This document shows, one piece after another, positions 1 to 44,147 of a stretch of 64,000 bases of DNA. Position numbers and translations under genes: made by a program. Source of the DNA: Dehalococcoidia bacterium (lineage in GTDB: Bacteria; Chloroflexota; Dehalococcoidia; JAUSIH01); NCBI GenBank assembly GCA_030648205.1, contig JAUSIH010000046.1, positions 1,370-65,369 on the forward strand. The letters run 5' to 3'. Below the pieces are notes generated by a model. That model was given only the letters and a program-made list of their open reading frames with translations, ran no database searches and had not been told where the DNA came from. The number at the start of each line of letters is the position of its first letter. The stretch's first letter is position 1.

Positions 1-844
1 ACGCCTCCGCGTCCAGCTTCACGGGGACGTCTGTCACGATGGTGGTGAGCTTCTTGCCGCGCAGCAGGGTCTCCTTGTTGGCGAGCAGCTTCTCACGCAG
101 CTTGGGCTTCAACTCGTCAATGCGCTGGTAGATGCCCTCAATGCTGCCGAACTGCTGGAGCAGCTCTGCCGCTCTCACTTCCCCTATATCGGGCACGCCG
201 GGTATGTTGTCCGAGTCGTCTCCTTTGAGCGCCTTGAAGTCCGCGATCTGAGCGGGGGAGACGCCGTAGCTCTCCCGCACGCGGGACTCGTCGTAGGTGA
301 CCATCTTGCCGGTGTAGGGCGACCACATGGAGACGCGCGCGTGCGGCCCGACGAGCTGCGTGATGTCCGAGTCGCCCGTCAGGATGATCACATCCAGATT
401 CTGCTCCACGGCCTGCCGGCTGAGCGCGCCCAGCACGTCGTCCGCCTCGAACCCCTCCGCTTCGAAGACGGGGACACCGAATGCCTCCACGATCTGCCGC
501 ACGCGCTGCATCTGCGCGCGTAGCTCGTCCGGCATGGGCGGCCTCTGGGCCTTGTACTCGGCGTAGAGGGCGTCGCGGAAGGTGGGCGTGGGAAGGTCGA
601 ACGCGATGGCCCAGTAGGCGGGGCGCACCTCCTCAAGGGCCTTGAGAAGGGTCTGCGTGAAGCCGTATGTGGCCCCCGTCGGCTCTCCGGTGCGTCGCAC
701 GGACAGCCCCTTGTCCTTCAGGGCGTGGTACGCGCGGTGCACCAGCGCGTGTCCGTCAATGAGCAGCACGACGGGCTGAGCCTTGGACGGGGCCGACTCT
801 CTGGCTGCGGCTTCGGCTTCGGCTTTGTCGCCGGTGGAAGACAT
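1..844 (-). CDS. polA: DNA polymerase I, N-terminal 5'-3' exonuclease domain (partial; the gene continues beyond the window start)
   Basis: Reverse-strand translation from the ATG at 842-844 gives MSSTGDKAEAEAAARE...PVVLLIDGHALVHRAYHAL...GEPTGATYGF...FDLPTPTFRDALYAEYKAQRPPMPDEL, a typical 5'-3' exonuclease N-terminus. The frame stays open to the window edge. Confidence 0.8.
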   Translation of the reverse strand, partial: MSSTGDKAEAEAAARESAPSKAQPVVLLIDGHALVHRAYHALKDKGLSVRRTGEPTGATYGFTQTLLKALEEVRPAYWAIAFDLPTPTFRDALYAEYKAQRPPMPDELRAQMQRVRQIVEAFGVPVFEAEGFEADDVLGALSRQAVEQNLDVIILTGDSDITQLVGPHARVSMWSPYTGKMVTYDESRVRESYGVSPAQIADFKALKGDDSDNIPGVPDIGEVRAAELLQQFGSIEGIYQRIDELKPKLREKLLANKETLLRGKKLTTIVTDVPVKLDAEA

Positions 845-3610: not shown

Positions 3611-5308
3611 TCAAATCTTGCTAGGCCAAGTCTCGACAGCAAGTTTTGCTAGGCGATTCTGTCGCTCTTTAATTTCCTTAGCGCCCCAAGATGCGCATTG
3701 GGCTGCCTCAATCGTCAGGGTAAACGTAGAATCTTGAAGTACGGGTCCCTTTTCCTTGTACGGGCTATTCCCGATCATAGAGTTTTTCTTCGCTTGCAAA
3801 ATGACCATATTCCCAAGCCGTTTGTAATAGGCGGCGGCGGTTTCACTATCAATATCCGGCCATTCGTTTCCAGGATGTTCAGGCAGAATATGTTCAAGGT
3901 TGATTGCCTGCTCCTCATCTTGCGGAACCCACTCTGGTTCGGGTTCCTTTTTCAGATATAGTTCCATCGCACGTAGGTAGTACCGCGCCAAGTAGACGTG
4001 GGACACTCTCGCTTCCGAAAAGGCAGTCTCAAAGAGCGCATCTGTAGGAACGACATCTGACATTTTAGCCGCCAGTTCCTTCGCCGTCTTGATTTTCCTG
4101 GTTCCAACATCTTGGGCGCGAAGCGCATAGTTCCGGTCAAGAAGTCCACCACGTCCACCAACAATCAAAAATCGTACTGACCAATAGACAAAGAGTCGGA
4201 ACGCATCCTGTGCCTCTTTAATTGAGAAGTAGCGAGCGACAGCGAACATGAGTGGGCGAATCTGCTCTACGCGAAGGTCACGATTGATGGTAGAAATATG
4301 TTTCCGCGTTCTGGTTCCGTATTGGTTCCATTTGGTATGGTCAGAGTTGTACAACGCGGCGTAGTCATTTGCCGCCTCTGCAACCTCACTGAGAAAAGTA
4401 AGCGCGCGGCTCTGGCTATCCACTGTCTGCCGAACCTTGTCAAAGACCTCTTGGCCTCTAGTTGGACCAGTCTTGGTAATCATGAAATGATGCAAGAATA
4501 TGACTGTAACATCATCTTGCCCTAGCGATTCAAGGACACCCACCATCTTTGCCCAATGCTGTTGAGCCTCATTTATGCGATCCCCTGCGTAACTCAACAG
4601 GTGGTTCTTCAGCAAGTCAGCTTGGGATGCTTTGAGACCACGGTCGTTGAGGGTTTCAAACATCATGAAAGCGTTCAAATGATCGGGTACACGGAGCACG
4701 ATGACTTGCGCTCCGGTGCGCACGAACTTAACCCATTCGAGCAACCGCGTTGTTTTCGCGGAGGGAGTATAAGGGTCCAAAATTTTTTGAATGTGCTTGG
4801 CAGCTATTTCACTCGCCAACTTGATACGCTTGTGGGATTCCTTCATGGGGGCAACCCCTCGTACAGGGTCATCAGGATTCGCCAGAATGAAATTCGAGAA
4901 GAACTCGTTATCGTCAACGTTCAAGCGAAGCTTAGGGACAATTGCCGTAGTGTTGATGTCCGTTGTCTTCAGGAAGTCATTCTCAATTGATTGGGCACGG
5001 GCAGCATCCTTATTCCAGTGGAAGTAGTCCCGAATGGCTGCCAAGAGGATCGTAGATGTCGCAAGTCGTTGTTGACCATCCGAAACCTCTGGAACCTCTC
5101 CCGCTCCCTTAGTTAGAACGATGGTTCCGAGAAAATAGCTGGCCTTGTTGTTAGCTATCGCATTCGCAAAGTCTTGGAGAAGGTCAGTGACATGATCTTC
5201 CTCCCATGAGTACTCTCGCTGGTTCAACGGAACGGCAAGGCGGTTGTGGGCCAAGACCTCTCCAATCCCCTTATACTCAAATCCAATTTCTTCCGTCGTA
5301 ATATGCAT
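3611..5308 (-). CDS. DUF262 (ParB-like nuclease, DGQQR motif) / DUF1524 (His-Me finger) fusion: GmrSD-family type IV (modification-dependent) restriction endonuclease-like defence protein
   Basis: The N-terminal region has NQREYSW and DGQQRL motifs. The C-terminal region has EHILP...GNMVIL, the DUF1524 His-Me finger. The gene sits in a ~2.3-kb segment of clearly lower GC than its flanks. Confidence 0.8.
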   Translation of the reverse strand: MHITTEEIGFEYKGIGEVLAHNRLAVPLNQREYSWEEDHVTDLLQDFANAIANNKASYFLGTIVLTKGAGEVPEVSDGQQRLATSTILLAAIRDYFHWNKDAARAQSIENDFLKTTDINTTAIVPKLRLNVDDNEFFSNFILANPDDPVRGVAPMKESHKRIKLASEIAAKHIQKILDPYTPSAKTTRLLEWVKFVRTGAQVIVLRVPDHLNAFMMFETLNDRGLKASQADLLKNHLLSYAGDRINEAQQHWAKMVGVLESLGQDDVTVIFLHHFMITKTGPTRGQEVFDKVRQTVDSQSRALTFLSEVAEAANDYAALYNSDHTKWNQYGTRTRKHISTINRDLRVEQIRPLMFAVARYFSIKEAQDAFRLFVYWSVRFLIVGGRGGLLDRNYALRAQDVGTRKIKTAKELAAKMSDVVPTDALFETAFSEARVSHVYLARYYLRAMELYLKKEPEPEWVPQDEEQAINLEHILPEHPGNEWPDIDSETAAAYYKRLGNMVILQAKKNSMIGNSPYKEKGPVLQDSTFTLTIEAAQCASWGAKEIKERQNRLAKLAVETWPSKI

Positions 5309-5856: not shown

Positions 5857-6558
5857 CTATCCGGTGAACAAGATGCGCTGGCAGTTGGGGCACTGGACGA
5901 TCTCGTCGCCGCGGGCGGCCCTGCGGTAGTCGCTCTCCGGCAGCGAGATGCGGCAGCCCATGCACATGCGGGAGGCGATGCGCGCCACGGCCAGGCCTTG
6001 CCGCAGGGGGCGCACACGCTCGTACAGGGCCAGGGCGGGCGCCGGCGGTTGGGCCGCGGCGGCCTTGCGGCGGGAGGTCAGCCCGGCTATCTCCGTCTGG
6101 AGCCGCGCCTGCTCTGTCCTGAGGCCGTCCTGTTCCACACGCCTCGCGTGCTCCGCGGCCTCCATCTCGGCGGCCCGCGACTTCACGGCTCCCTGGGCCT
6201 GCTCGACGGTGTCCATGAGGGCGAGCAGCTTCCCGTCGGTTCCGCTCCGCTTGGCCTTGAGACGCTCCAGTTCTTCCTCCATGTTCATCAACTCTTTGGG
6301 GCTTTTCACTGAGCCGCCGTAGAGCTTCTTATCAAGCGTCCTGACCTTCTCGTCGGCGTCCTGGATGTCGGCCTCCACGCTGCGCTGCTCGCGTTGAAGG
6401 CGAGTCTGCTCCTCTTTGGCTGTGGCCAAAGCCTGGCGGGCGGCGCGCAGCGCCTCCGTTTCGCCCATCCGGGCCTCGACGGCGACGAGCGCCGCCTTCT
6501 CTCTGTCCAGCGCCAGGTCTATTTCCTGGAGCTGATAAAGCTGCTCCGCAACGGTCAT
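5857..6558 (-). CDS. zinc-ribbon domain protein (COG1579-like coiled-coil protein with a C-terminal C4 zinc ribbon)
   Basis: Long coiled-coil N-terminus followed by CMGCRISLPESDYRRAARGDEIVQCPNCQRILF. Confidence 0.65.
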   Translation of the reverse strand: MTVAEQLYQLQEIDLALDREKAALVAVEARMGETEALRAARQALATAKEEQTRLQREQRSVEADIQDADEKVRTLDKKLYGGSVKSPKELMNMEEELERLKAKRSGTDGKLLALMDTVEQAQGAVKSRAAEMEAAEHARRVEQDGLRTEQARLQTEIAGLTSRRKAAAAQPPAPALALYERVRPLRQGLAVARIASRMCMGCRISLPESDYRRAARGDEIVQCPNCQRILFTG

Positions 6559-26458: not shown

Positions 26459-26533
26459 GCGGGGGTAATTCAGTGGTAGAATGCCACCCCTCCAAGGTGG
26501 ACGTCGCGGGTTCGAATCCCGTCCCCCGCTCCA
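26459..26533 (+). tRNA. tRNA-Gly (anticodon UCC)
   Basis: Manual cloverleaf: acceptor stem GCGGGGG/CCCCCGC, D-arm attc-agtggta-gaat, anticodon arm ccacc-cctccaa-ggtgg (anticodon TCC), T-arm gcggg-ttcgaat-cccgt, discriminator U73 and an encoded CCA. G1-C72, C2-G71, G3-C70 and U73 are Gly identity elements. Confidence 0.8.
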
Positions 26534-30768: not shown

Positions 30769-31380
30769 ATGGCCGTAGCCACAACCATCCGCATGAAGTC
30801 GCCCGTCGCCAGTGCGCCGGACACCAGGAACCGCCTCGCGCCGCTCGTGGACGACGTGCGCGGCAAGGCAGCCGGTTTCCGCGTCCAGTGGAGCAGCTTC
30901 GACGTGTTCATGAAACGCTTTGAGGAGCTGCTGATGGAGCGCAAGCAGCCGCGGTCCGTCCATATCATGGACCAGAACTGGGAGTCTCCCGCCGTCATCA
31001 AGAAGGGCCTCAAGATGAATTACGCGGACCCGGGCTGGGCCAAAGAGTGGGACGAGTTCGCCAAGAACGCGGACTGGGCGGTGGTTGGGTTGGCGGCCTG
31101 AGGCGGCTGCACCTCGTGGAGTATCCACGACACGGTCGAAGCCCAGAAGCGCGGCATCCCGACTGTGACCATCGTCACCGAGCAGTTCGTCAGCCTCGCC
31201 AAGAGCGTCGCGAAGTCCATGGGCTATCCCGACCTGCCGATGGTGGTCGTCCCGCACCCGTTCGAGACCCTTTCTCACGACACGATCCGCAAGATCGCGG
31301 AAGAGAAGTACGACGAGATTCTCTCCAAGGTGCAGAAGGCCAAGGAAGTGCGCGTGCCCGCCCAGGGCGCGGCCTCGTAG
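30769..31380 (+). CDS. putative selenoprotein with a UxxC redox motif (UGSC-family-like); in-frame TGA at 31099-31101 read as Sec
   Basis: ORFs 30769-31101 and 31165-31380 are in the same frame, joined only by the TGA. The joined product reads ...WAVVGLAA-U-GGCTSWSIHDTVEAQKRGIPTVTIVTEQ.... A hairpin tcgtgga-gta-tccacga begins 13 nt after the TGA. Confidence 0.6.
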
Positions 31381-31390
31381 CTCGAACGTC

Positions 31391-32452
31391 ATGACTACTG
31401 AGTACATCGAGGTCGAAAACGACATAGACAAGGCGTTTCAGGCCGCGTACGAGCAGGGCTGGACGGACGGTCTGCCCGTCATTCCGCCCACGGAGCAGCG
31501 CGTGGCGGCCATGCTGGCGACGGTGGACCGTAAGCCGAGCGACGTCATCGGCCTGCTACCGCCCCGGAACGGGCAGGCTATCGTCGAGAAGGTGGCGGTC
31601 AGCGCGGTCATGGCGGGATGTCTGCCGTCCTATTTCCCCGTGGTGGTGGCGGCCATCGAAGCCGCCGCCGACCCCGCGGTCTATCTGCGCGGCATCAACT
31701 CCACCACGAACCCGGTGGCGCCTTTGCTGATCATCAACGGGCCTATCCGCAAGGAGATTGAGGTCAACTGTAGCTGGAGCGTGATGGGGCCGGGGCCACG
31801 CGCCAACGCCACCATCGGGCGCGCGTTCAGCCTGTGCATGATCAACATCGCGGGGCGCATCCCCGGCGAGGTCACGAAGTCCACGCACGCATCGCCGGGG
31901 CGCTACACGTGGTGCATCGGCGAGTACGAGGAGAAAAGCCCGTGGGAGCCGCTGCACGTGGAGCGCGGCTTCAAGAAGGAGGACAGCACAGTCACGCTGC
32001 TCGCTCCGACGGGCCACATCAACGCGCTGGACATGCTGGGCCAGACCGGCGACGAAATCCTGACCATGATCACGTCGTGCCTCAGCCTGATGGCGAGCAA
32101 CAACTTCTTCAACCGCTACGGCGAGGGCGACATGGGCGTCATCCTCTGCCCGGCGCACGCGGACATCATCAAACGCGACATCGGCGGCAAGCAGAAGGCG
32201 AAGGAAGCGCTGCTGGAGAAGACGAGCCGATGGATTCGGATGGCGGACATTCCGCCGCATCTCAAGGCGGCCGTTGAAGGGCTGAACCCTGGCTCGAAGC
32301 AGATCGAGGGCGAGTTCGCCCGGCTGGCGGCCCGCGCCGACCAGTTCGTGCTGGTGGTCGCGGGCGGCCTCGGCGGGTATCACTCCGTGGCGCTGCCCAC
32401 GTTCGGCGGGCCGCAGACCATCACGTGGGCCATCAAGGCGAAGAAGCGGTAG
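31391..32452 (+). CDS. conserved hypothetical protein (353 aa), probably co-transcribed with the upstream UxxC selenoprotein; its 3' end is duplicated ~1.2 kb downstream
   Basis: The ATG lies 11 bp after the selenoprotein stop. No confident family assignment from sequence. The C-terminal ...ARLAARADQFVLVVAGGLGGYHSVALPTFGGPQTITWAIKAKKR is duplicated at 33492-33638. Confidence 0.55.
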   Translation: MTTEYIEVENDIDKAFQAAYEQGWTDGLPVIPPTEQRVAAMLATVDRKPSDVIGLLPPRNGQAIVEKVAVSAVMAGCLPSYFPVVVAAIEAAADPAVYLRGINSTTNPVAPLLIINGPIRKEIEVNCSWSVMGPGPRANATIGRAFSLCMINIAGRIPGEVTKSTHASPGRYTWCIGEYEEKSPWEPLHVERGFKKEDSTVTLLAPTGHINALDMLGQTGDEILTMITSCLSLMASNNFFNRYGEGDMGVILCPAHADIIKRDIGGKQKAKEALLEKTSRWIRMADIPPHLKAAVEGLNPGSKQIEGEFARLAARADQFVLVVAGGLGGYHSVALPTFGGPQTITWAIKAKKR

Positions 32453-32690
32453 GGCCGTCCGGTCAGAGCGGCCTGACTCCAGAGGCGCCAGCACCAAAAC
32501 GGGGTGGCCCGAACTAGAAGGGGCCACCCCGTTTCTCTTTGACATGGCGGAACGATTGCCTATTGGGAGTCGCCTTGCGGCTTGAGGCCCCTGTGGTGGG
32601 TTCTCTGGACAGCACTCGAACCTGCTACGGCCTGACCTTGTGCCGCAGGCTGAGGCGACTGCTAAACATGAAGTAAGAGCTCACGCACCG
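32302..32690. repeat. direct repeat copy A (~380 bp): the 3' end of gene 31391-32452 plus ~240 bp downstream
   Basis: ggctggcggcccgcgccgaccagttcgtgct...aaggcgaagaagcggtag...ggtcagagcggcctgactccaga[g]gcgccagcaccaaaacgggg... is repeated at 33492-33850 at ~85-90% identity. Confidence 0.7.
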
Positions 32691-32740: not shown

Positions 32741-33208
32741 CTACGCCAGTTGCAGTCCGAGAAAATACGTTCGGTAGTACCCACGGTCTCTGGTCAGCAG
32801 TCGGTCAGCATGGAGGGTAGCATGGGCACCGATGAGGAAATCGGCCACGACGTGTTGGCGTGGGATGAGATGTGCTCCACACCTCGCGCAGTGAATGTCC
32901 TGTGAAGTTCCACAGGAAGGGCAAACCAGGGAATCTGGCCGCCGGCGCAGGTACTCGCGCCATGCCTTGCCTGCCAGGTAGAGGGCCTCGGTGCCCGAGG
33001 GCTGTAGTCGGATACCGGTATCTTCCAGGAACCGGTCCAGTTCCTCACGAGCGGGGAAATGGGGAGACAGCTCCGCGTAAACGGCTTCGGAGACGACCGT
33101 CGCGCCAGCTCTAAGGGACTCGGTCAGGGCCTGCTCTGAGGCGTCTCCGTGCGGAGCACCAGGGACAAGGACGTCCAGGAGGATGTTCGTGTCCACCGCA
33201 GTGATCAC
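32741..33208 (-). CDS. VapC-family PIN-domain toxin with an inserted CxxC...CxxC zinc-ribbon
   Basis: MITAVDTNILLDVL (PIN acidic residues) and a C-terminal ...DFLIGAHA. The inserted segment is CPSCGTSQDIHCARCG. It overlaps vapB by 4 bp. Confidence 0.7.
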   Translation of the reverse strand: MITAVDTNILLDVLVPGAPHGDASEQALTESLRAGATVVSEAVYAELSPHFPAREELDRFLEDTGIRLQPSGTEALYLAGKAWREYLRRRPDSLVCPSCGTSQDIHCARCGAHLIPRQHVVADFLIGAHATLHADRLLTRDRGYYRTYFLGLQLA

Positions 33209-33444
33209 TGCCCGCGCATCTCCTTGACAAGCTCGTCGGGATCCTGCTCCGTCAGGTTTTTCAGGTAGCCCCTATACTTTTTGAGCGGAGCGGGAGGGAG
33301 GCGCTTCCTGAGGCGGAACACGCCATCTTCCTCCATGAATTCCAGTTTGTCTCCTGGCCGGAGCCCCATGCGCTCGCGGACCTCTTTGGGGATGGTCACC
33401 TGTCCTTTGGTGGTAATCCTCGTCATAGCCATGTCTGCCCTCAC
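33205..33444 (-). CDS. AbrB/MazE/SpoVT-family antitoxin (VapB-like)
   Basis: RITTKGQVTIPKEVRERMGLRPGDKLEFMEEDGVFRLRK matches the swapped-hairpin beta-barrel signature. Confidence 0.7.
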   Translation of the reverse strand: MRADMAMTRITTKGQVTIPKEVRERMGLRPGDKLEFMEEDGVFRLRKRLPPAPLKKYRGYLKNLTEQDPDELVKEMRGQ

Positions 33445-33491: not shown

Positions 33492-33850
33492 ATGCAACTG
33501 GCATCGAGGCTGGCGGCCCGCGCCGACCAGTTCGTGCTCGTGGTCGCGGGCGGCCTCGGCGGGTATCACTCCGTGGCGCTGCCGACGTTCGGCGGGCCGC
33601 AGACCATCACGCGGGTGATCAAGGCGAAGAAGCGGTAGTGCCATCTGGTCAGAGCGGCCTGACTCCAGAGTCGCCAGCACCAAAACGGGGGGCCTATTTA
33701 GCTTAGGCCGCCCCGTTTCTCGTTGCCGTGTCGGAAAGATTGGCTATTGGGAATCGCCTCGCGGCTCGAGTCCCCTGTGGTGGGCGTCAGGGGACAGTGC
33801 TCGAACTTTCTGCAGTCTGAGTTGGCGGCTGGGGGCGGCTGCTGGCTACA
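33492..33850. repeat. direct repeat copy B (~360 bp), a diverged duplicate of 32302-32690 that includes a 3' fragment of gene 31391-32452
   Basis: It encodes ...QLASRLAARADQFVLVVAGGLGGYHSVALPTFGGPQTITRVIKAKKR* in the + frame. It carries a 13-bp deletion relative to copy A and ends 2 bp before the stop of the low-GC gene at 33853. Confidence 0.7.
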
Positions 33851-33852
33851 TC

Positions 33853-35130
33853 CTACGGCACAGGCTTCATTCGGAGTCGGCTGTCGATATTTCTCACACC
33901 GCAGGCAATCTGATCACATAGCCATTCTAGACTCAAGAACTCAGCGAACAATCTGCCAAAGAACCCGCGACTAACTCTGCAGTCCGTTTCCTTCGATCCA
34001 GACATTTGCCAACCAAGATTGCGTAGTCTCAGTACACAATTGTCTTCATCTAGCAGCTCCGCCGATAATCCTAGGGAGTTGAACCGCTCCTCAAGTACCT
34101 TGGTGTCAACGACGATCGCGATAAACAGTTTCCCAAGGTAGAACTCCCACAGTGCGTCCAGATTGTGGATGGACAACGTGAAAGGATAGTAGGCGGAATT
34201 CTGCCATTTGAAATCGTTAACAATTGCCAGCATTGGCTGCCCCTTACACCTCTGTCTGACCGAGGCCATCCAATCCAGTCTGGATTCGCACATCACCACA
34301 TAGAAAAGGCCCTTTTCCACTTCTTCCCAGTTAAGGCCACATTCCTTAGCCCGTCGAATGATACCGTCTAGCCTCTTTCTATGGTTCACCTCTTCGCTAC
34401 ACACGGCGAATCTATTGAACTCGCCGTGTATTCCATATAGGTCGTGTGTCACGTCGGTCTTCAAGTAGTCCACTACTCTCTTGATATTTGCAGACTGCCT
34501 CCTTGCTCTCTGGTTCCTATGCGTTCCTGACTTCACTTCAACAATGGCGAACAGCTTGTCTCCTTGCCCCGCAGTGATGTCGCCATAACGGAGGCAATGA
34601 GTGACGTCATTCAATATGCCAACGCCACCCAGCTTAAATATCTTTTGCAATACACGCCATTCTTTTCGCAAGCCGGCCTTCCCGGATACGAAACCAGATG
34701 CCTCCTTAAAACGCATAGGCTTGATGTCGTACTTGTCGCCATATGTGAACGCGAGGGCGTCTCCGATATCCTTCAGAATATGCAGCACTCGCTTGTACCC
34801 TTCTAGCTTGCTGCTTCGAGCTTTGATAGCGCTCTTGATCTGACGCTGGTGGATTCTGTCTGCGTCCGAACCTGCGTATCCACTCAAGACCGCCTTGGCA
34901 CTCTTGATCTGTAATCTGGTGACGCGTATCTGAGTTTCGACATGCTTGATTCTTTCCAAGAGCGTTCTCTGCAAACTCAGGCATGTTATTCTCGCCGATG
35001 ATGGGTCCGCATTTAGACGATGGACGAGAGCCATCATATCCATCACCGACCGTTTGTAACGACTCACAATTGGGGGCAGAGATGAGACTAAGTCGCGTTC
35101 GCGCCGTCTATCCCCTACTGCTTGGATCAT
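33853..35130 (-). CDS. hypothetical protein (425 aa) with an N-terminal coiled coil and a putative PD-(D/E)xK nuclease motif; encoded in a low-GC (~47%) insertion
   Basis: YGDITAGQGDKLFAIVEVKSG fits the D...(D/E)xK restriction-endonuclease-fold core. Composition (K/I/N-rich) and GC differ sharply from the ~68% GC flanks. The N-terminal start is uncertain (alternative M30). Confidence 0.5.
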   Translation of the reverse strand: MIQAVGDRRRERDLVSSLPPIVSRYKRSVMDMMALVHRLNADPSSARITCLSLQRTLLERIKHVETQIRVTRLQIKSAKAVLSGYAGSDADRIHQRQIKSAIKARSSKLEGYKRVLHILKDIGDALAFTYGDKYDIKPMRFKEASGFVSGKAGLRKEWRVLQKIFKLGGVGILNDVTHCLRYGDITAGQGDKLFAIVEVKSGTHRNQRARRQSANIKRVVDYLKTDVTHDLYGIHGEFNRFAVCSEEVNHRKRLDGIIRRAKECGLNWEEVEKGLFYVVMCESRLDWMASVRQRCKGQPMLAIVNDFKWQNSAYYPFTLSIHNLDALWEFYLGKLFIAIVVDTKVLEERFNSLGLSAELLDEDNCVLRLRNLGWQMSGSKETDCRVSRGFFGRLFAEFLSLEWLCDQIACGVRNIDSRLRMKPVP

Positions 35131-35338
35131 CGTCTCTCTGCCTAGGTGCGGTGTTGCAATAATCCTTCACATTATGGGCGTTGTGATTCTCAACTGCTAC
35201 GACTGCCCTCGGAAGCATCCGCCCCGCGCCAATTCTAGCCCTGCAGAGCCTGCCCCGTCCACCGCCAACGCATGTTAGAGCGCGGTGCCTCACTATCGGT
35301 GTTTCACGCCCGCCCGGACGTCGCGCTGCTCGTCCGCG

Positions 35339-35581: not shown

Positions 35582-35674
35582 GATGCTCCTCTCCTTCCGA
35601 TGGAATCAGGACATCCACTTCGCCAACTTTGTAGAACCAAACAGCGGGTCTTCGCGTTTGGCGCGCCCGCGCCT

Positions 35675-36112
35675 CTACCGCATCCCGCCGAAGCCCGTGA
35701 CCGTCACGCGCGTCTGGAAGTCGCGCTGGTCGTCCGTCCACAGGGTCTTCAGATAGCCTATGACCTGGCGCACCTCGTTCGGCGAGAGGCCGTCCCGCCA
35801 CGAGGGCATCCCCGCCGCTGTCCCGCGCGTGATGGTGCGGAACAGGTTGTCGTCCGTGTGCTCGTAGGCGTGGCCGGTCGCGTTCAGCGGCGGGCCGATC
35901 AGACCGCGTCCCTCGACGCCGTGGCATATCTGGCAGCGCTCCACGAAAACCAACTGTCCCGCTGAGGGCGCTTCCGGAGCGGAGGGGGCCATCGCCTGGG
36001 CGGGCGCGGCGCAGCCCGACAGCAGGAGCAGGGCGAGGGCCGCGCCCCTTCCACGGAAGGGCCAGGTCGTGGCGCTAGGCCGCCGGGCCGGACTGCACGG
36101 ACGCGGGGACAT
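35675..36112 (-). CDS. c-type cytochrome (class I, single CxxCH) lipoprotein
   Basis: Lipobox LLLSGCAAP and haem-binding CQICHG...GMPSW (distal Met). The start overlaps the upstream rSAM gene by 37 bp, so the true start may be later. Confidence 0.75.
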   Translation of the reverse strand: MSPRPCSPARRPSATTWPFRGRGAALALLLLSGCAAPAQAMAPSAPEAPSAGQLVFVERCQICHGVEGRGLIGPPLNATGHAYEHTDDNLFRTITRGTAAGMPSWRDGLSPNEVRQVIGYLKTLWTDDQRDFQTRVTVTGFGGMR

Positions 36113-41473: not shown

Positions 41474-41518
41474 ACACATATCTGCTAGCTAGAGCTTGCA
41501 AAGCTAGCAGATATGTGT
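41474..41518. repeat. perfect 17-bp inverted repeat (acacatatctgctagct / agctagcagatatgtgt) with an 11-bp spacer, in an AT-rich intergenic region
   Basis: The arms at 41474-41490 and 41502-41518 are exact reverse complements, and each arm contains the palindrome GCTAGC. Confidence 0.6.
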
Positions 41519-41651
41519 TATAGTGACAGCGGGAAAGTGGCTATGCCCCTTGCGGGGCATACCTCATATTAACGGCCCCTGGATTCTCAACCAGGGCGTC
41601 GCCTGACCACCGATAGACCAGGGGTGTGTCATTGGACATGCCTCCTTTCCA

Positions 41652-41697
41652 GGCCCTAGAGGACGTCCGCAAAACAGACTCTAGGGCCTCTTTTTTA
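41652..41697 (+). terminator. intrinsic terminator-like hairpin (ggccctagag...ctctagggcc followed by TCTTTTTT), functional in + orientation; it overlaps the stop codon of the minus-strand gene 41695-42243
   Basis: 10-bp GC-rich stem, 16-nt loop and a T6 tract on the + strand. No + strand CDS lies upstream. Confidence 0.4.
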
Positions 41698-42243
41698 TCC
41701 CAAACGGGCCGTCTGCCCCGGTGTTTGGCTAAGATAAGAACGTTGAGCCTCAGCTTTGGAAGTCTTCCTGTGATATTTGTTTCTGGGTAGACCTTCCCAA
41801 AGCTCGTTTCTCGCTCCGGCTCTGAGTGTTCCGACGAGAGAATGCTTAGCGCGAAGCCTGTCTCTGTCATTGTCAATCTCATAAATCCGTTCAACCAGCG
41901 CATTTGCATGCATGACCTCATCGGTCTCGCCCAAGATGGAAGACACGATTTGGGTTAGCGACATGCCTTCCCACTCTGCACGTCTTACCGGCATATCCTT
42001 CGACCTATTTCCAGGTTTTCCAACGCCCCCCTTGGGCGTCAGTTCGTGCAACTGGATCGGCGACAGATTATGAGCTACCAACAGACTATTCAATTGCTGA
42101 ACATACGCCTTGCACTTTTCAAGACGAAGCGTCACCCTTTTAGCTTCGTGAACAAGCTGCGAGTACTCGCGTTGCTTTTCTGCCGCCTGCTGCAGCAAAG
42201 CTTCTTCAAAGGTCGTTTGTCTCTCGCTGCTGTTCTGATTCAT
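41695..42243 (-). CDS. hypothetical protein (182 aa; N-terminal coiled coil) in a low-GC segment
   Basis: An uninterrupted ORF with AT-rich codon usage that contrasts with its flanks. No recognisable catalytic motifs. Confidence 0.45.
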   Translation of the reverse strand: MNQNSSERQTTFEEALLQQAAEKQREYSQLVHEAKRVTLRLEKCKAYVQQLNSLLVAHNLSPIQLHELTPKGGVGKPGNRSKDMPVRRAEWEGMSLTQIVSSILGETDEVMHANALVERIYEIDNDRDRLRAKHSLVGTLRAGARNELWEGLPRNKYHRKTSKAEAQRSYLSQTPGQTARLG

Positions 42244-42379
42244 GACGTTCTCCTATGAGCGGTACACTTGAGAGTATAACAGGTCGATGAAATTAACGCA
42301 AGAGGAAATGTGCGACAGCCATCGCCAGCGAAAAAAAACAGGTATTTCTGAACATGCATATTTGGCATAGTGTTGGTAG

Positions 42380-42600
42380 TGGTAGACGCGGTGGACGGCA
42401 CTAGACGGCACTAGGCAATACTAGACGATGCGAGACAGTGGTAGACAGTGATACACAGTGATGCATGGTGATATACGGTGATACATGGTGATACACGGTG
42501 ATGCATGGTGATGCACGGTAAGGCACCGAGACGCACAGCGGTAGACAGTGCAATAGTCGCGAATCTGGTGAACGGGGTCACGACAGCGGCAATGGCGGGG
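42380..42600. repeat. array of ~20 degenerate 10-bp tandem units (RGTGATRYAY / ctagacggca-like), i.e. helical-period repeats
   Basis: ...agtgatacac agtgatgcat ggtgatatac ggtgatacat ggtgatacac ggtgatgcat ggtgatgcac ggtaaggcac... Confidence 0.6.
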
Positions 42601-42816
42601 AAATCTGCTATGCAGCTTTCTGGGCCAGGCTGGTGAGTGTGTTGCCACTGTTTGCGCATGATGGTGATGGCGGACTAGGGACAGCGAATGTAGGTCTTCC
42701 AATTGCCACGTATGCGGCATGGAGTTCAATTTCCGGTGGCCCCTTCGGGCGAGAAAGTACACTACCCCCTTGCCACGTCTTCTCGCGTCTGCCACAATGC
42801 CTGCAGGAGGATACCT

Positions 42817-43443
42817 ATGTCTGAGACTATCGCGTTCGACGTGTACTGCGACTACACCTGACCCTACGTGCACACGGCGGCCGTCTGGCTCGCCGATGTC
42901 CGGAAGGCGCTGGGCGACCGTTTGGTGGTCACCTGGCGCTACTTCTCGCTGGAGCAGGTGAACAGCCAGGAGGGGCCTGAGTGGAAGCTGTGGGATCAGC
43001 CGGACTCGTACCATAGCAAGGGTCGCCTGGCGTTCCACGCCGCGGAGTCGGCCCGCCGTCAGGGGCCGGACGCCTTTGAGCGTCTGCACATGGGGCTTCT
43101 GAAGGCGAGGCACGAGGATGGCAAGAGCCTGGCGGAGCGCGCGGTGGTGCTGGACGTGGCGCAGCGCGCGGGGCTGGACACGGCCCGCCTGGAGAGAGAC
43201 CTGGGCGACCGCTTGCTGCTGCGACGCCTGGGGGAGGACCACACGCACGCGGTGGAGAAGTACGGCGTCTTTGGTACGCCCACGCTGGTCTTCGCCAACG
43301 GCGGCGCCGCGTACCTGAAACTGCGGCCCGCGCCGCCGGCCCAGGACGCGTTGCGCGTGTTTGAGAACCTTCACCAGTTCATCGCCGGATGGCCCTTCAT
43401 CGTCGAGGTGAAGCGGCCCACGCCGGGCGCACGGCCTCGGTAA
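42817..43443 (+). CDS. DsbA / kappa-GST / HCCA-isomerase-like thioredoxin-fold protein with an in-frame TGA (42859-42861) at the active-site nucleophile position: putative selenoprotein
   Basis: ATG at 42817 with a strong SD aggagg 6 nt upstream. The product reads MSETIAFDVYCDYT-U-PYVHTAAVWLADV..., continuous with ORF 42868-43443. U-P-Y aligns with the C-P-W-C / S-P-Y-S catalytic motif of the family. A hairpin acgg-cgg-ccgt begins 13 nt after the TGA. Confidence 0.6.
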
Positions 43444-43448
43444 GCGGA

Positions 43449-44147
43449 ATGGCAGCATCGCACGACCTGGAGAAACTGGAGCGCGCGTTAGGGGTGGCCT
43501 TCCACGACCGCAGGTTCCTGGACGAGGCGCTTGTGCACCGCTCCTATGTCCACGAGCGGACGGCGCCGCTCTCCTCCAATGAACGTCTTGAGTTTCTGGG
43601 CGACGCTTTTCTGGGCTTCGTGGTCGCGGACGAGTTGATGCGCGCCTTTCCCGGCGTCTCGGAAGGCGACCTGACCCAGCTACGCACGGCGCTGGTGCGC
43701 GGAGAGACGCTGGCGGAGCTGGCCGCGTCGCTCAATCTGGGTGACTTCCTGTACTTGGGACGTGGCGAGGCGCAGGCCGGAGGACGTAAACGGACAACGA
43801 ATCTGGCACGGGTGATGGAGGCGGTGATGGGCGCCGTTCTGGTGGACCAGGGCTACGAGGCGGCGCGAAGCTGGCTCCTCAGGCTTCTGGCGCCCGCCAT
43901 GCAGCGGCTGGCGCGGGAAGGCCCTCCGCGGGACGAGAAGTCCGTCCTCCAGGAGATGGTGCAGGCGCGGGGCATGCCATCGCCGGAGTACCGGGTGGTG
44001 GAGGCCAGCGGGCCTGCCCACAAGCGGACGTTCGATGTGGAGGTGGAGGCGGGCGATGTGCGGGGCAGAGGCGCGGGGCGCAGCAAGCGTGCCGCGGAGC
44101 AGGCGGCCGCCCGGTCGGCGCTGGCGGCGCTGCGGGGGCGTGTCTAG
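43449..44147 (+). CDS. rnc: ribonuclease III
   Basis: ERLEFLGDAFLGFVVADEL (RNase III signature), the catalytic region MEAVMGAVLVDQG and a C-terminal dsRBD (PEYRVVEASGPAHKRTFDVEVEAG...RSKRAAEQAAARSAL). Confidence 0.9.
   Translation: MAASHDLEKLERALGVAFHDRRFLDEALVHRSYVHERTAPLSSNERLEFLGDAFLGFVVADELMRAFPGVSEGDLTQLRTALVRGETLAELAASLNLGDFLYLGRGEAQAGGRKRTTNLARVMEAVMGAVLVDQGYEAARSWLLRLLAPAMQRLAREGPPRDEKSVLQEMVQARGMPSPEYRVVEASGPAHKRTFDVEVEAGDVRGRGAGRSKRAAEQAAARSALAALRGRV

Follow-up and report, generated by a model that had tools for sequence, protein, structure and literature searches.

A low-GC gene beside a vapBC repeat

The window, a 64,000-nucleotide stretch of contig JAUSIH010000046.1 from a Dehalococcoidia bacterium, carries on its minus strand an ORF which in its longest form encodes 425 aa (Table 1). 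GenBank annotates it from a shorter, 368-aa start as hypothetical protein Q7T26_05665, and an NCBI protein, P0001, is 100% identical. The first residues are the least certain part: model confidence is low at residues 1-20 (pLDDT 39-59), and most homologues first align at residue 21-24.

In composition the gene is foreign to its surroundings. Its GC content is 0.499 against 0.646 in the remainder of the window, and its GC3 is 0.58 against 0.90-0.93 in the adjoining host genes. The low-GC island proposed in the original prediction is thus real, while the figures given for it (~47% in a ~68% genome) were slightly off. The neighbouring defence genes named there were also found, namely a vapBC toxin-antitoxin (TA) module and, 28 kb away, a type IV restriction enzyme. 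The latter, a GmrSD gene at 3611-5308, matches the ORF in composition (GC 0.49, GC3 0.53). Among other loci of the family, the gene has a lower GC content than its locus in 21 of 24.

Comparison by blastn with a non-syntenic Dehalococcoidia copy (L017) delimits the island. The two share only the unit listed in Table 1, at 77% identity, and the GC dip spans the same stretch; the flanks of L017, and of a further copy (L016), are unrelated to the window. Composition and shared unit together support a horizontally acquired island of one gene, as had been proposed. An orthologue 87% identical to the ORF lies at the same site in a related genome (L001), and comparison with it yields a dN/dS of 0.19 over a dS of 0.38. 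This is a real gene under purifying selection and, given its fixed chromosomal site, one kept by selection on the protein rather than by ongoing mobility.

Table 1. Coordinates, in the window, of the 425-aa gene and of the features assigned to it
Feature	Position	Strand	Basis
Protein-coding gene, 425 aa	33853..35130	-	ORF; identical to P0001; dN/dS 0.19; 718 homologous clusters
Transferred unit: ORF with ~66 nt upstream and ~87 nt downstream	33766..35196	-	blastn against L017; GC dip
Uncertain N-terminal extension, residues 1-22	35065..35130	-	Low model confidence; kept in closest subclade only
Alternative start GTG (codon 22)	35065-35067	-	Codon position
N-terminal antiparallel helical hairpin (coiled coil), residues 26-130	34741..35055	-	Predicted
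PD-(D/E)xK (Hjc-like) nuclease core, residues 143-230	34441..34704	-	Predicted
Putative catalytic codon E157	34660-34662	-	
Putative catalytic codon D184	34579-34581	-	
Putative catalytic codon E198	34537-34539	-	
Putative catalytic codon K200	34531-34533	-	
Invariant D175 codon	34606-34608	-	
Invariant Q212 codon	34495-34497	-	
C-terminal alpha/beta domain without recognisable relative, residues 250-425	33856..34383	-	
Sigma-70-like promoter match TGGACG-18-TAGAAT, ~100 nt upstream of ATG	35232..35261	-	Weak

The vapBC pair, a PIN protein with a MazE/AbrB-type antitoxin, is enclosed by a direct repeat (32322-32600 and 33508-33784). Whether the ORF ends 2 bp after the second copy, as first described, is a matter of where the repeat is taken to end: the copy defined by the tool stops 69 nt short of the stop codon, and the rest, to ~33850, is weaker similarity judged by eye. 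The repeat itself is real. The orthologous locus L001 has no vapBC and instead carries an RHH-ParE pair on the opposite side of the gene, and vapBC was on this ground rejected as a functional partner. Both pairs are self-contained and differ between the orthologous loci, and vapBC is a later, unrelated insertion. The ORF was likewise rejected as the toxin of a TA pair, there being no conserved, adjoining and co-oriented small partner gene among 116 flanking ORFs.

A mini mobile element bounded by a 17-nt inverted repeat (33827-33843 and 35214-35230) was discarded, as its right arm falls beyond what the window and L017 have in common. We found no sign of tRNA or integrase-type integration at the site: the only tRNA lies at 26459, and the window has no recombinase close to the gene. 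No Rfam family was detected between 30000 and 36500. A scan for the sigma-70 consensus gave three sites against 1.3 expected; the promoter match of Table 1 falls just outside the L017-shared unit.

A predicted nuclease core most similar to Hjc

The N-terminal coiled coil described in the original prediction is here predicted as a helical hairpin, in which Q54 and E65 are invariant and an IGDALAF segment is conserved at the base. The C-terminal domain has conserved residues of its own (E272, G274, Y277, P316, R393, F398 and W403). Between the two lies the segment GDITAGQGDKLFAIVEVKSG (residues 183-202 of the 425-aa product), for which a D-(D/E)xK core had been proposed. D175, D184, E198, K200 and Q212 are invariant in 112 divergent family members, among which mean column identity is 28%. 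D184, E198 and K200 are also invariant in a set of 65 homologues, so the D...ExK pattern is not a chance occurrence; E157 is invariant in this smaller set and occurs in at least 90% of the larger one.

In the AlphaFold model (pLDDT ~90), the core is composed of a helix (154-166), three strands (170-173, 185-189 and 192-197), a second helix (207-225) and a final strand (227-229). This predicted alpha-beta-beta-beta-alpha-beta topology is that of the PD-(D/E)xK superfamily. D184 opens the second strand and E198-x-K200 closes the third which, with E157 on the first helix, reproduces the conserved-residue pattern of that superfamily.

Searches of PDB sequences with phmmer and a full-length profile returned only coiled-coil noise, and a profile of the core alone was made for this reason. 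Against 177,635 PDB sequences, its four best matches were entries for Hjc, the archaeal Holliday-junction resolvase, at borderline E-values of 0.045-0.4. HMM alignment to 1hh1_A and 4tkk_A places E157, D184, E198 and K200 on E12, D42, E55 and K57 of Hjc, which we take to be its catalytic tetrad (S. solfataricus numbering). The spacing is similar, with 27 versus 30 residues from the first E to D and 14 versus 13 from D to the second E. Sub-threshold Pfam matches, all within the same clan, occurred in 7 of the 112 members: Hjc in three (E 0.015 or weaker), HSDR_N in two (E 0.025), Card1_endonuc in one (E 0.0013) and PDDEXK_9 in one. Per-member scans of the 65 and 112 relatives placed no clan member above threshold. 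Fold searches, of the kind suggested at the outset, returned no significant neighbour.

Taken together, residue invariance, predicted topology and alignment to the Hjc tetrad support D184...E198-x-K200 as a predicted active site of PD-(D/E)xK type, in agreement with the original reading of this segment. The nuclease assignment, considered by itself, appears likely; nuclease activity and a DNA substrate are inferred.

Hjc (PF01870; PDB 1hh1, 4tkk, 2eo0, 1gef and 1ob8) is the best and the sole consistent sequence-profile match, sharing with the candidate the predicted order of secondary structure, the spacing and the aligned E-D-ExK tetrad. It cleaves four-way junctions specifically, as a homodimer. 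The differences are substantial: Hjc is a single domain of ~120-145 aa from archaea or their viruses, whereas the candidate is bacterial, has ~400 aa and three modules, and adds a hairpin of ~100 residues before the core and a novel domain of ~175 residues after it. Its invariant D175, T177, Q212 and R240 have no matching residues in aligned Hjc. With no Pfam Hjc match at E≤10, the candidate stands outside PF01870.

A sparse, solitary family in variable neighbourhoods

Judged from its homologues, the 425-aa protein is a member of a real but unnamed family, comprising 718 clusters at 50% identity. The product has no match in Pfam (at E≤10) or NCBIfam and none at E≤10 among 5,027 PADLOC-DB v2.0.0 models of defence proteins. 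This agrees with the initial view that no family could be named, and it is at odds with the anticipation of PDDEXK_*, Shedu/DUF4263 or Mrr matches in Pfam or PADLOC. A literature search (PHROG identifier, an accession, and Hjc with anti-phage) found no published description of the family.

Homologues derive from bacterial genomes and metagenome-assembled genomes, sparsely distributed, with 22 loci, spread over at least seven phyla, in ~185,000 species genomes. Two viral contigs also carry the family. A direct match to phrog_14906 (PHROGs v4; E 4.9e-32 over residues 91-373) indicates that relatives are carried by phages or prophages; this PHROG has no functional annotation, and thus adds to the distribution of the family, not to its function. 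A tblastn search of 50,697 GenBank phage genomes gave no match, and that of plasmids gave four weak ones, labelled 'hypothetical' or unannotated. The gene is sometimes a pseudogene, as in L016 and L017.

The family gene is always solitary. Across 116 flanking ORFs from 23 of 24 loci, no family occurs more than twice, and an all-versus-all BLAST found no recurrent unannotated neighbour. The association with vapBC, for which co-occurrence in other genomes had been proposed as a check, is therefore accidental: L001 lacks vapBC and no partner gene recurs elsewhere. What does surround the gene varies from site to site. Neighbours include a large serine recombinase with a DUF2726 helicase and Fic at one site, and an integrase with HNH at another; elsewhere we noted MNT/HEPN with GIY-YIG, HicAB with a resolvase and nSTAND, an MmeI-type methyltransferase with a PLD-SNF2 helicase and GIY-YIG, a resolvase with AbiEii and the Lit peptidase (U49), and type I restriction-modification with bAvd. 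Thoeris, AbiE, PDC-S02 and MzaA occur at single loci each among the 116 ORFs. Of 12 annotated independent loci, roughly nine have a defence, TA or recombinase gene no further than ~6 kb away. Several loci have plain housekeeping surroundings (L004, L015 and L040, for example), and amidase, NadA and cobalamin genes also occur as neighbours. By association with the defence and mobile-element neighbours, a defence role is plausible.

Candidate function and its alternatives

Shedu (SduA, DUF4263) is a single anti-phage protein of ~400 aa in which a PD-(D/E)xK nuclease is coupled to a regulatory or sensor part without catalytic function; its gene lies in defence islands, and it works without a methyltransferase. 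It is the functional model which the candidate most likely resembles. The Pfam and PADLOC models of Shedu/DUF4263 do not match the candidate even at E≤10, DUF4263/SduA is not recurrent in the top 25 Pfam families among the 65 and 112 relatives, and the nuclease domain is central in the candidate but C-terminal in Shedu. Type IV enzymes such as GmrSD and Mrr likewise share with the candidate a solitary nuclease gene, the lack of a methyltransferase and an AT-rich one-gene island. The candidate differs from them in having no detected GmrSD, Mrr_cat or other type IV domain and no recognisable reader of modified bases, and in its coiled-coil hairpin, which is not usual in these enzymes. Nuclease domains of the Card1/Can2 and HSDR_N types belong to the same clan and match single relatives weakly. 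The candidate itself matches neither Card1_endonuc nor HSDR_N and, unlike those systems, has no CARF domain and no helicase or type I restriction-modification context. A type II restriction-modification endonuclease was rejected, since in the window the gene has no methyltransferase beside it and the 116 flanking ORFs (23 of 24 loci) include no recurrent methyltransferase family; restriction-modification genes lie near only L041 and L044.

The explanation we favour, at a little short of an even chance for the whole statement with its defence role, is a stand-alone, metal-dependent anti-phage endonuclease of an unnamed family. Its core would be most like that of Hjc, with E157, D184 and E198 binding metal, K200 serving as the catalytic lysine, and D175 and Q212 as additional invariant residues of the active site. 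The gene would pass from genome to genome as a one-gene cassette, carrying short flanks of its own and landing in variable regions, at the edges of prophages and in defence islands. There the single protein may act against phage or mobile DNA, the hairpin and C-terminal domain perhaps oligomerising and holding the active site off host DNA, and cleavage could be licensed by some feature of the invader, such as free ends, branched replication intermediates or base modification. The earlier proposal of a single-gene anti-phage system stands as far as the solitary island with its predicted nuclease is concerned, with defence plausible by association.

The family could alternatively serve the mobile elements which carry it, as a DNA-processing nuclease and not an immune effector, for example a structure-specific resolvase or a recombination nuclease needed to replicate, excise or package prophages and integrative islands. 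Serine or tyrosine recombinases often adjoin the gene, and PHROG membership and the viral contigs point in the same direction. Yet in the window, L001, L004, L015 and L040 the gene lies by itself between host genes, where there is no element for it to serve, and the copy in the window is under purifying selection at such a site. The recombinases beside the gene belong to no recurring family, any one family accounting for at most 2 of 116 flanking ORFs; the gene is absent from the 50,697 sequenced phage genomes; and its product is three times as large as Hjc and carries two additional conserved modules. We consider this explanation unlikely. A selfish or addictive nuclease gene, toxin-like or homing-type, which spreads itself at no benefit to the host, could account for the minimal cassette with its ~70-90 nt flanks, the patchy phyletic spread, the frequent pseudogenes, the hot spots shared with TA modules and the HNH or GIY-YIG genes beside some copies. 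It fits poorly in that neither an antitoxin-like neighbour nor an overlapping small ORF was found to be conserved. Insertions are intergenic, with no intein, intron or disrupted target gene seen; there are no terminal repeats, the sole inverted repeat lying partly outside the shared unit; and the selection measured against L001 at a fixed chromosomal site is not what such a gene would lead one to expect. This reading seems distinctly improbable.

It may also be asked whether the acidic and lysine residues form a nuclease site at all. Patterns as short as D...ExK occur commonly, no clan match in Pfam exceeds its threshold and the Hjc E-values are themselves borderline; the protein might then be a non-catalytic or otherwise catalytic factor, for instance a scaffold binding nucleic acids or nucleotides through a coiled-coil arm, its resemblance to Hjc convergent or spurious. 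Against this, the four aligned catalytic positions are invariant or nearly so in a family of such low mean identity, and both the order of secondary structure and the spacing agree with Hjc, which leaves this explanation quite unlikely. A bolder form of the anti-phage endonuclease would be a new one-protein immune system, in which a structure-specific nuclease of Hjc type, carried on a coiled-coil arm and on a sensor domain of a novel kind, would recognise the branched or recombination-intermediate DNA that arises as phages replicate. We hold this to be improbable; if true, it would amount to recognition of non-self by DNA architecture, with no reliance on sequence or modification, and would make the C-terminal domain a new fold.

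The locus itself presents as a chromosomal hot spot, at which sister genomes have received different TA cassettes beside the same candidate nuclease gene, a duplication flanking each cassette. A small family (~700 clusters), a confident model and obvious catalytic point mutants make the proposal directly testable. Should it hold, the anti-phage repertoire would gain a compact one-gene nuclease system whose architecture of helical hairpin, Hjc-like core and unassigned domain would be absent from current catalogues, and phrog_14906, with hundreds of 'hypothetical proteins', would gain a name and a probable activity.

Identity and acquisition of the gene

The candidate is a real, selected and horizontally acquired gene. 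Its ORF is present precisely as originally described, and its product is matched by a 100% identical NCBI protein (Q7T26_05665), which places the window in a Dehalococcoidia MAG. A sharp dip in GC content (approximately 0.49-0.51, between flanks of 0.60-0.73) lies over the ORF, with GC of 0.499 versus 0.646 in the remaining window and GC3 of 0.58 versus 0.90-0.93 in the neighbouring radical-SAM genes and gene X, an ORF near its 3' end. The compositional contrast of the original prediction thus stands, while its values of 47% and 68% were slightly off.

In related metagenomic contigs (locus L001), an 87%-identical orthologue is found at the corresponding chromosomal site, adjoining the same cytochrome c gene and two radical-SAM genes. 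Between the two genes dS is 0.38, dN 0.07 and dN/dS 0.19, and the protein is therefore under purifying selection. Non-syntenic Dehalococcoidia copies (L016 and L017; 71% amino-acid identity over the best tblastn segments) share nothing with the window beyond the gene itself. The limits of DNA homology with L017 (77%), at window positions 33766 and 35196, point to a transferred unit of the ORF with approximately 66 nt upstream and 87 nt downstream. L016 and L017 both appear inactivated (Table).

GenBank annotates a 368-aa product with a TTG start at residue 58 (window 34957-35130 affected), which would remove conserved helix 1 and with it the invariant Q54. This start is probably wrong. The majority of homologues begin at query residue 21-24, and the true start should be M1 (ATG 35130) or GTG-22 (GTG 35067).

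The original claim that no family could be named was borne out by Pfam, NCBIfam and PADLOC, the last a check proposed at the time, with zero matches even at E<=10; the anticipated PDDEXK, Shedu/DUF4263 or Mrr-like matches were consequently not obtained from Pfam or PADLOC with the window protein. PHROGs offered phrog_14906, a family of unannotated function (E 4.9e-32). A word-indexed search returned 72 clusters, with all source-named ones labelled 'hypothetical protein', and HMMER, run exhaustively over 1.84 billion representatives, gave 718 matches at E<=1e-3 (253 at E<=1e-30); among the best 150 of the 718, full-length members span about 400 aa and the remainder are shorter fragments. We found no paper that mentions this family.

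Features of the candidate, the window and homologous loci
Feature	Sequence	Position	Strand	Remarks
Helical hairpin	candidate protein	helices 44-83 and 89-130		long, antiparallel; AlphaFold
Alpha-beta-beta-beta-alpha-beta unit	candidate protein	154-229		AlphaFold
Additional alpha/beta domain	candidate protein	to 421		AlphaFold
GmrSD type IV restriction gene	window	3611-5308	-	second one-gene low-GC island; GC 0.49, GC3 0.53
CT398-like coiled-coil hairpin and zinc ribbon protein	window	5857-6558	-	beside GmrSD
Probable UGSC-family selenoprotein	window	30769-31380	+	ORFs 30769-31101 and 31165-31380; in-frame TGA 31099-31101
Gene X	window	31391-32452	+	353 aa; 3' end duplicated; no Pfam match
Direct repeat copies	window	32322-32600, 33508-33784		95% then 80% identity
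vapBC	window	32741-33208, 33205-33444		PIN toxin, MazE/AbrB-type antitoxin
Candidate nuclease gene	window	33853-35130	-	425 aa
ORFs in third GC dip	window	41541-41921, 41695-42243, 42421-43458	-	no Pfam match
RHH-ParE pair	L001	4663-5494		between cytochrome c and nuclease genes
Homologue	L016	7740-9113		longest ORF 358 aa (234 aa as called)
Homologue	L017	8001-9290		similarity divided among several frames
260-aa ORF	L010/L027	6208-6990	+	ends 10 nt before homologue
421-aa and 549-aa ORFs	L044	3008-5973	+	just upstream of homologue
ORF with weak SLATT_5 match	L015	6422-6817	+	upstream of 58%-identical homologue

Predicted fold and putative active site

An AlphaFold model built on a 65-sequence alignment (pLDDT 89.8, pTM 0.89) has three parts (Table). 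The base of the hairpin bears the invariant Q54 and E65, and the central unit runs through helix 154-166, strands 170-173, 185-189 and 192-197, helix 207-225 and strand 227-229. Foldseek, another of the proposed checks, returned no PDB match to the model below E 0.5, and as modelled the globular part as a whole has no recognisable solved relative.

Residues invariant in the 65 homologues include D124, E157, D175, T177, D184, E198, K200, Q212 and R240. Across 112 more divergent representatives (mean column identity 28%), Q54, E65, G146, G153, D175, D184, E198, K200, Q212 and P316 are invariant and E157 is retained in at least 90%. D184, in the segment GDITAGQGDKLFAIVEVKSG (residues 183-202), lies just before strand 2 and E198-x-K200 ends strand 3 of the beta-hairpin, a placement which in the model is that of canonical PD-(D/E)xK geometry; the D-(D/E)xK core of the original prediction is upheld on both counts.

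A profile of the core only (residues 143-250, 50 sequences), searched against 177,635 PDB sequences, had as its top four matches the archaeal Holliday-junction resolvase Hjc (4tkk, E 0.045; 1hh1, 0.047; 2eo0, 0.21; 4tkd, 0.4), with E157, D184, E198 and K200 opposite Hjc E12, D42, E55 and K57, the four catalytic residues of that enzyme. Independently, individual members gave sub-threshold Pfam matches to Hjc (three members), HSDR_N (two), Card1_endonuc (one, E 0.0013) and PDDEXK_9 (one), all of them PD-(D/E)xK families. Each single result is non-significant, but we consider it quite likely that the candidate is a nuclease because three methods agree on one superfamily, the tetrad is invariant and the topology is as expected for it.

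Genomic surroundings

In L001, gene X directly abuts the nuclease gene, with a single repeat copy and without vapBC, and an RHH-ParE pair lies on the opposite side. On this comparison vapBC is a later, independent insertion rather than a partner, and the proposed link between the two is rejected. The repeat bracketing vapBC is a duplication of about 280-340 nt comprising the gene X 3' end and the intergenic region; weaker similarity, by eye, extends the copies to about 32665 and 33850. The cassette looks like a Campbell-type or duplicative toxin-antitoxin (TA) insertion. Window positions 35663-35728 match L001 on both sides of its RHH-ParE insert, and a duplication of approximately 66 nt therefore flanks that cassette too. 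One hot spot thus took different TA modules in the same insertion style.

Elsewhere in the window, the sole other equally AT-rich 1-kb bin contains the GmrSD gene, confirming the type IV restriction enzyme placed 28 kb away. A third dip (about 41500-43500, GC 0.54-0.59) may be a further foreign insert. Upstream of gene X, one frame is broken by a TGA (..VVGLAA-TGA-GGCTSW..); its C-terminal part matches Pfam UGSC (PF24696) and beyond the TGA lies a stable hairpin (dG -21.2 kcal/mol, z -2.05). The frame probably encodes, judging from sequence, a selenoprotein of the UGSC family and carries a SECIS-like element. Gene X lies directly downstream and may therefore be a partner of this family that has yet to be characterised.

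A search of one-genome-per-species GTDB contigs (185,579 species) located only 22 loci, distributed among Chloroflexota, Planctomycetota, Proteobacteria, Acidobacteriota, Verrucomicrobiota, Chlorobiaceae and Firmicutes. In IMG/VR the gene occurs on two contigs, on one of them next to an HNH gene and near host-like genes; plasmids gave four weak matches and GenBank phages none. Across 24 loci, the gene is poorer in GC than its locus in 21 (as in the pairs 0.37 versus 0.58 and 0.38 versus 0.57). Among 116 flanking ORFs, every Pfam family appears at most twice, and all-versus-all BLAST of neighbours revealed no unannotated recurrence except the synteny of two related Chloroflexota; the candidate appears to have no partner gene. 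Lineage-specific partners are possible, as the tight upstream ORFs of L010 and L044 lack Pfam matches and are not common to other loci. In L015, an upstream ORF weakly matches SLATT_5 (E 1.3e-4, sub-threshold), a domain with two TM segments that serves as an effector in conflict systems.

Mobile-element or defence genes are common among the neighbours: a large serine recombinase, DUF2726 helicase and Fic at one locus; in Bordetella genomosp. 12, a phage integrase directly upstream and HNH on the downstream side; and, elsewhere, MNT/HEPN, GIY-YIG and YhcG; HicAB, a resolvase, nSTAND NTPases and a prophage-like block; an MmeI-type methyltransferase, PLD-SNF2 helicase and GIY-YIG; a resolvase, AbiEii and Lit-type peptidase U49; a type I restriction-modification S subunit and bAvd; and, at single loci each, Thoeris ThsA/ThsB, AbiEi/Eii, PDC-S02 and MzaA. 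Other loci have plain housekeeping surroundings, and the link to defence is suggestive.

Proposed function and alternatives

On the best-supported reading, the product is a metal-dependent DNA endonuclease that works alone, is encoded by a one-gene cassette and would act against invading DNA. It would probably be oligomeric, via the Hjc-like core and/or the hairpin. A lone nuclease with no methyltransferase needs restraint, and we therefore infer that the hairpin and novel C-terminal domain would keep the active site closed until foreign DNA presents a particular feature. This feature might be free ends, in line with the Shedu model, base modification, following type IV logic, or branched replication intermediates, suggested solely by kinship with Hjc.

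Less likely alternatives are a resolvase serving its element, a nuclease of selfish or toxin type, and a role other than that of a nuclease. Hjc is the closest kin of the candidate, which nevertheless fails Hjc membership because of its size, its architecture, its taxonomy and its model score. Among known systems, Shedu, Mrr, GmrSD and every PADLOC family are ruled out by sequence, and type II restriction systems differ in having a methyltransferase and TA toxins in having a partner.

Of the original prediction, then, the observation is confirmed and the interpretation upheld in part: the nuclease is likely, the vapBC association has fallen, and the role in defence is plausible though unproven. 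Predicted to work most like PD-(D/E)xK nucleases, the candidate is classed among those of defence islands as a new family with a new architecture: clean and directly testable, yet one among many unnamed island nucleases.
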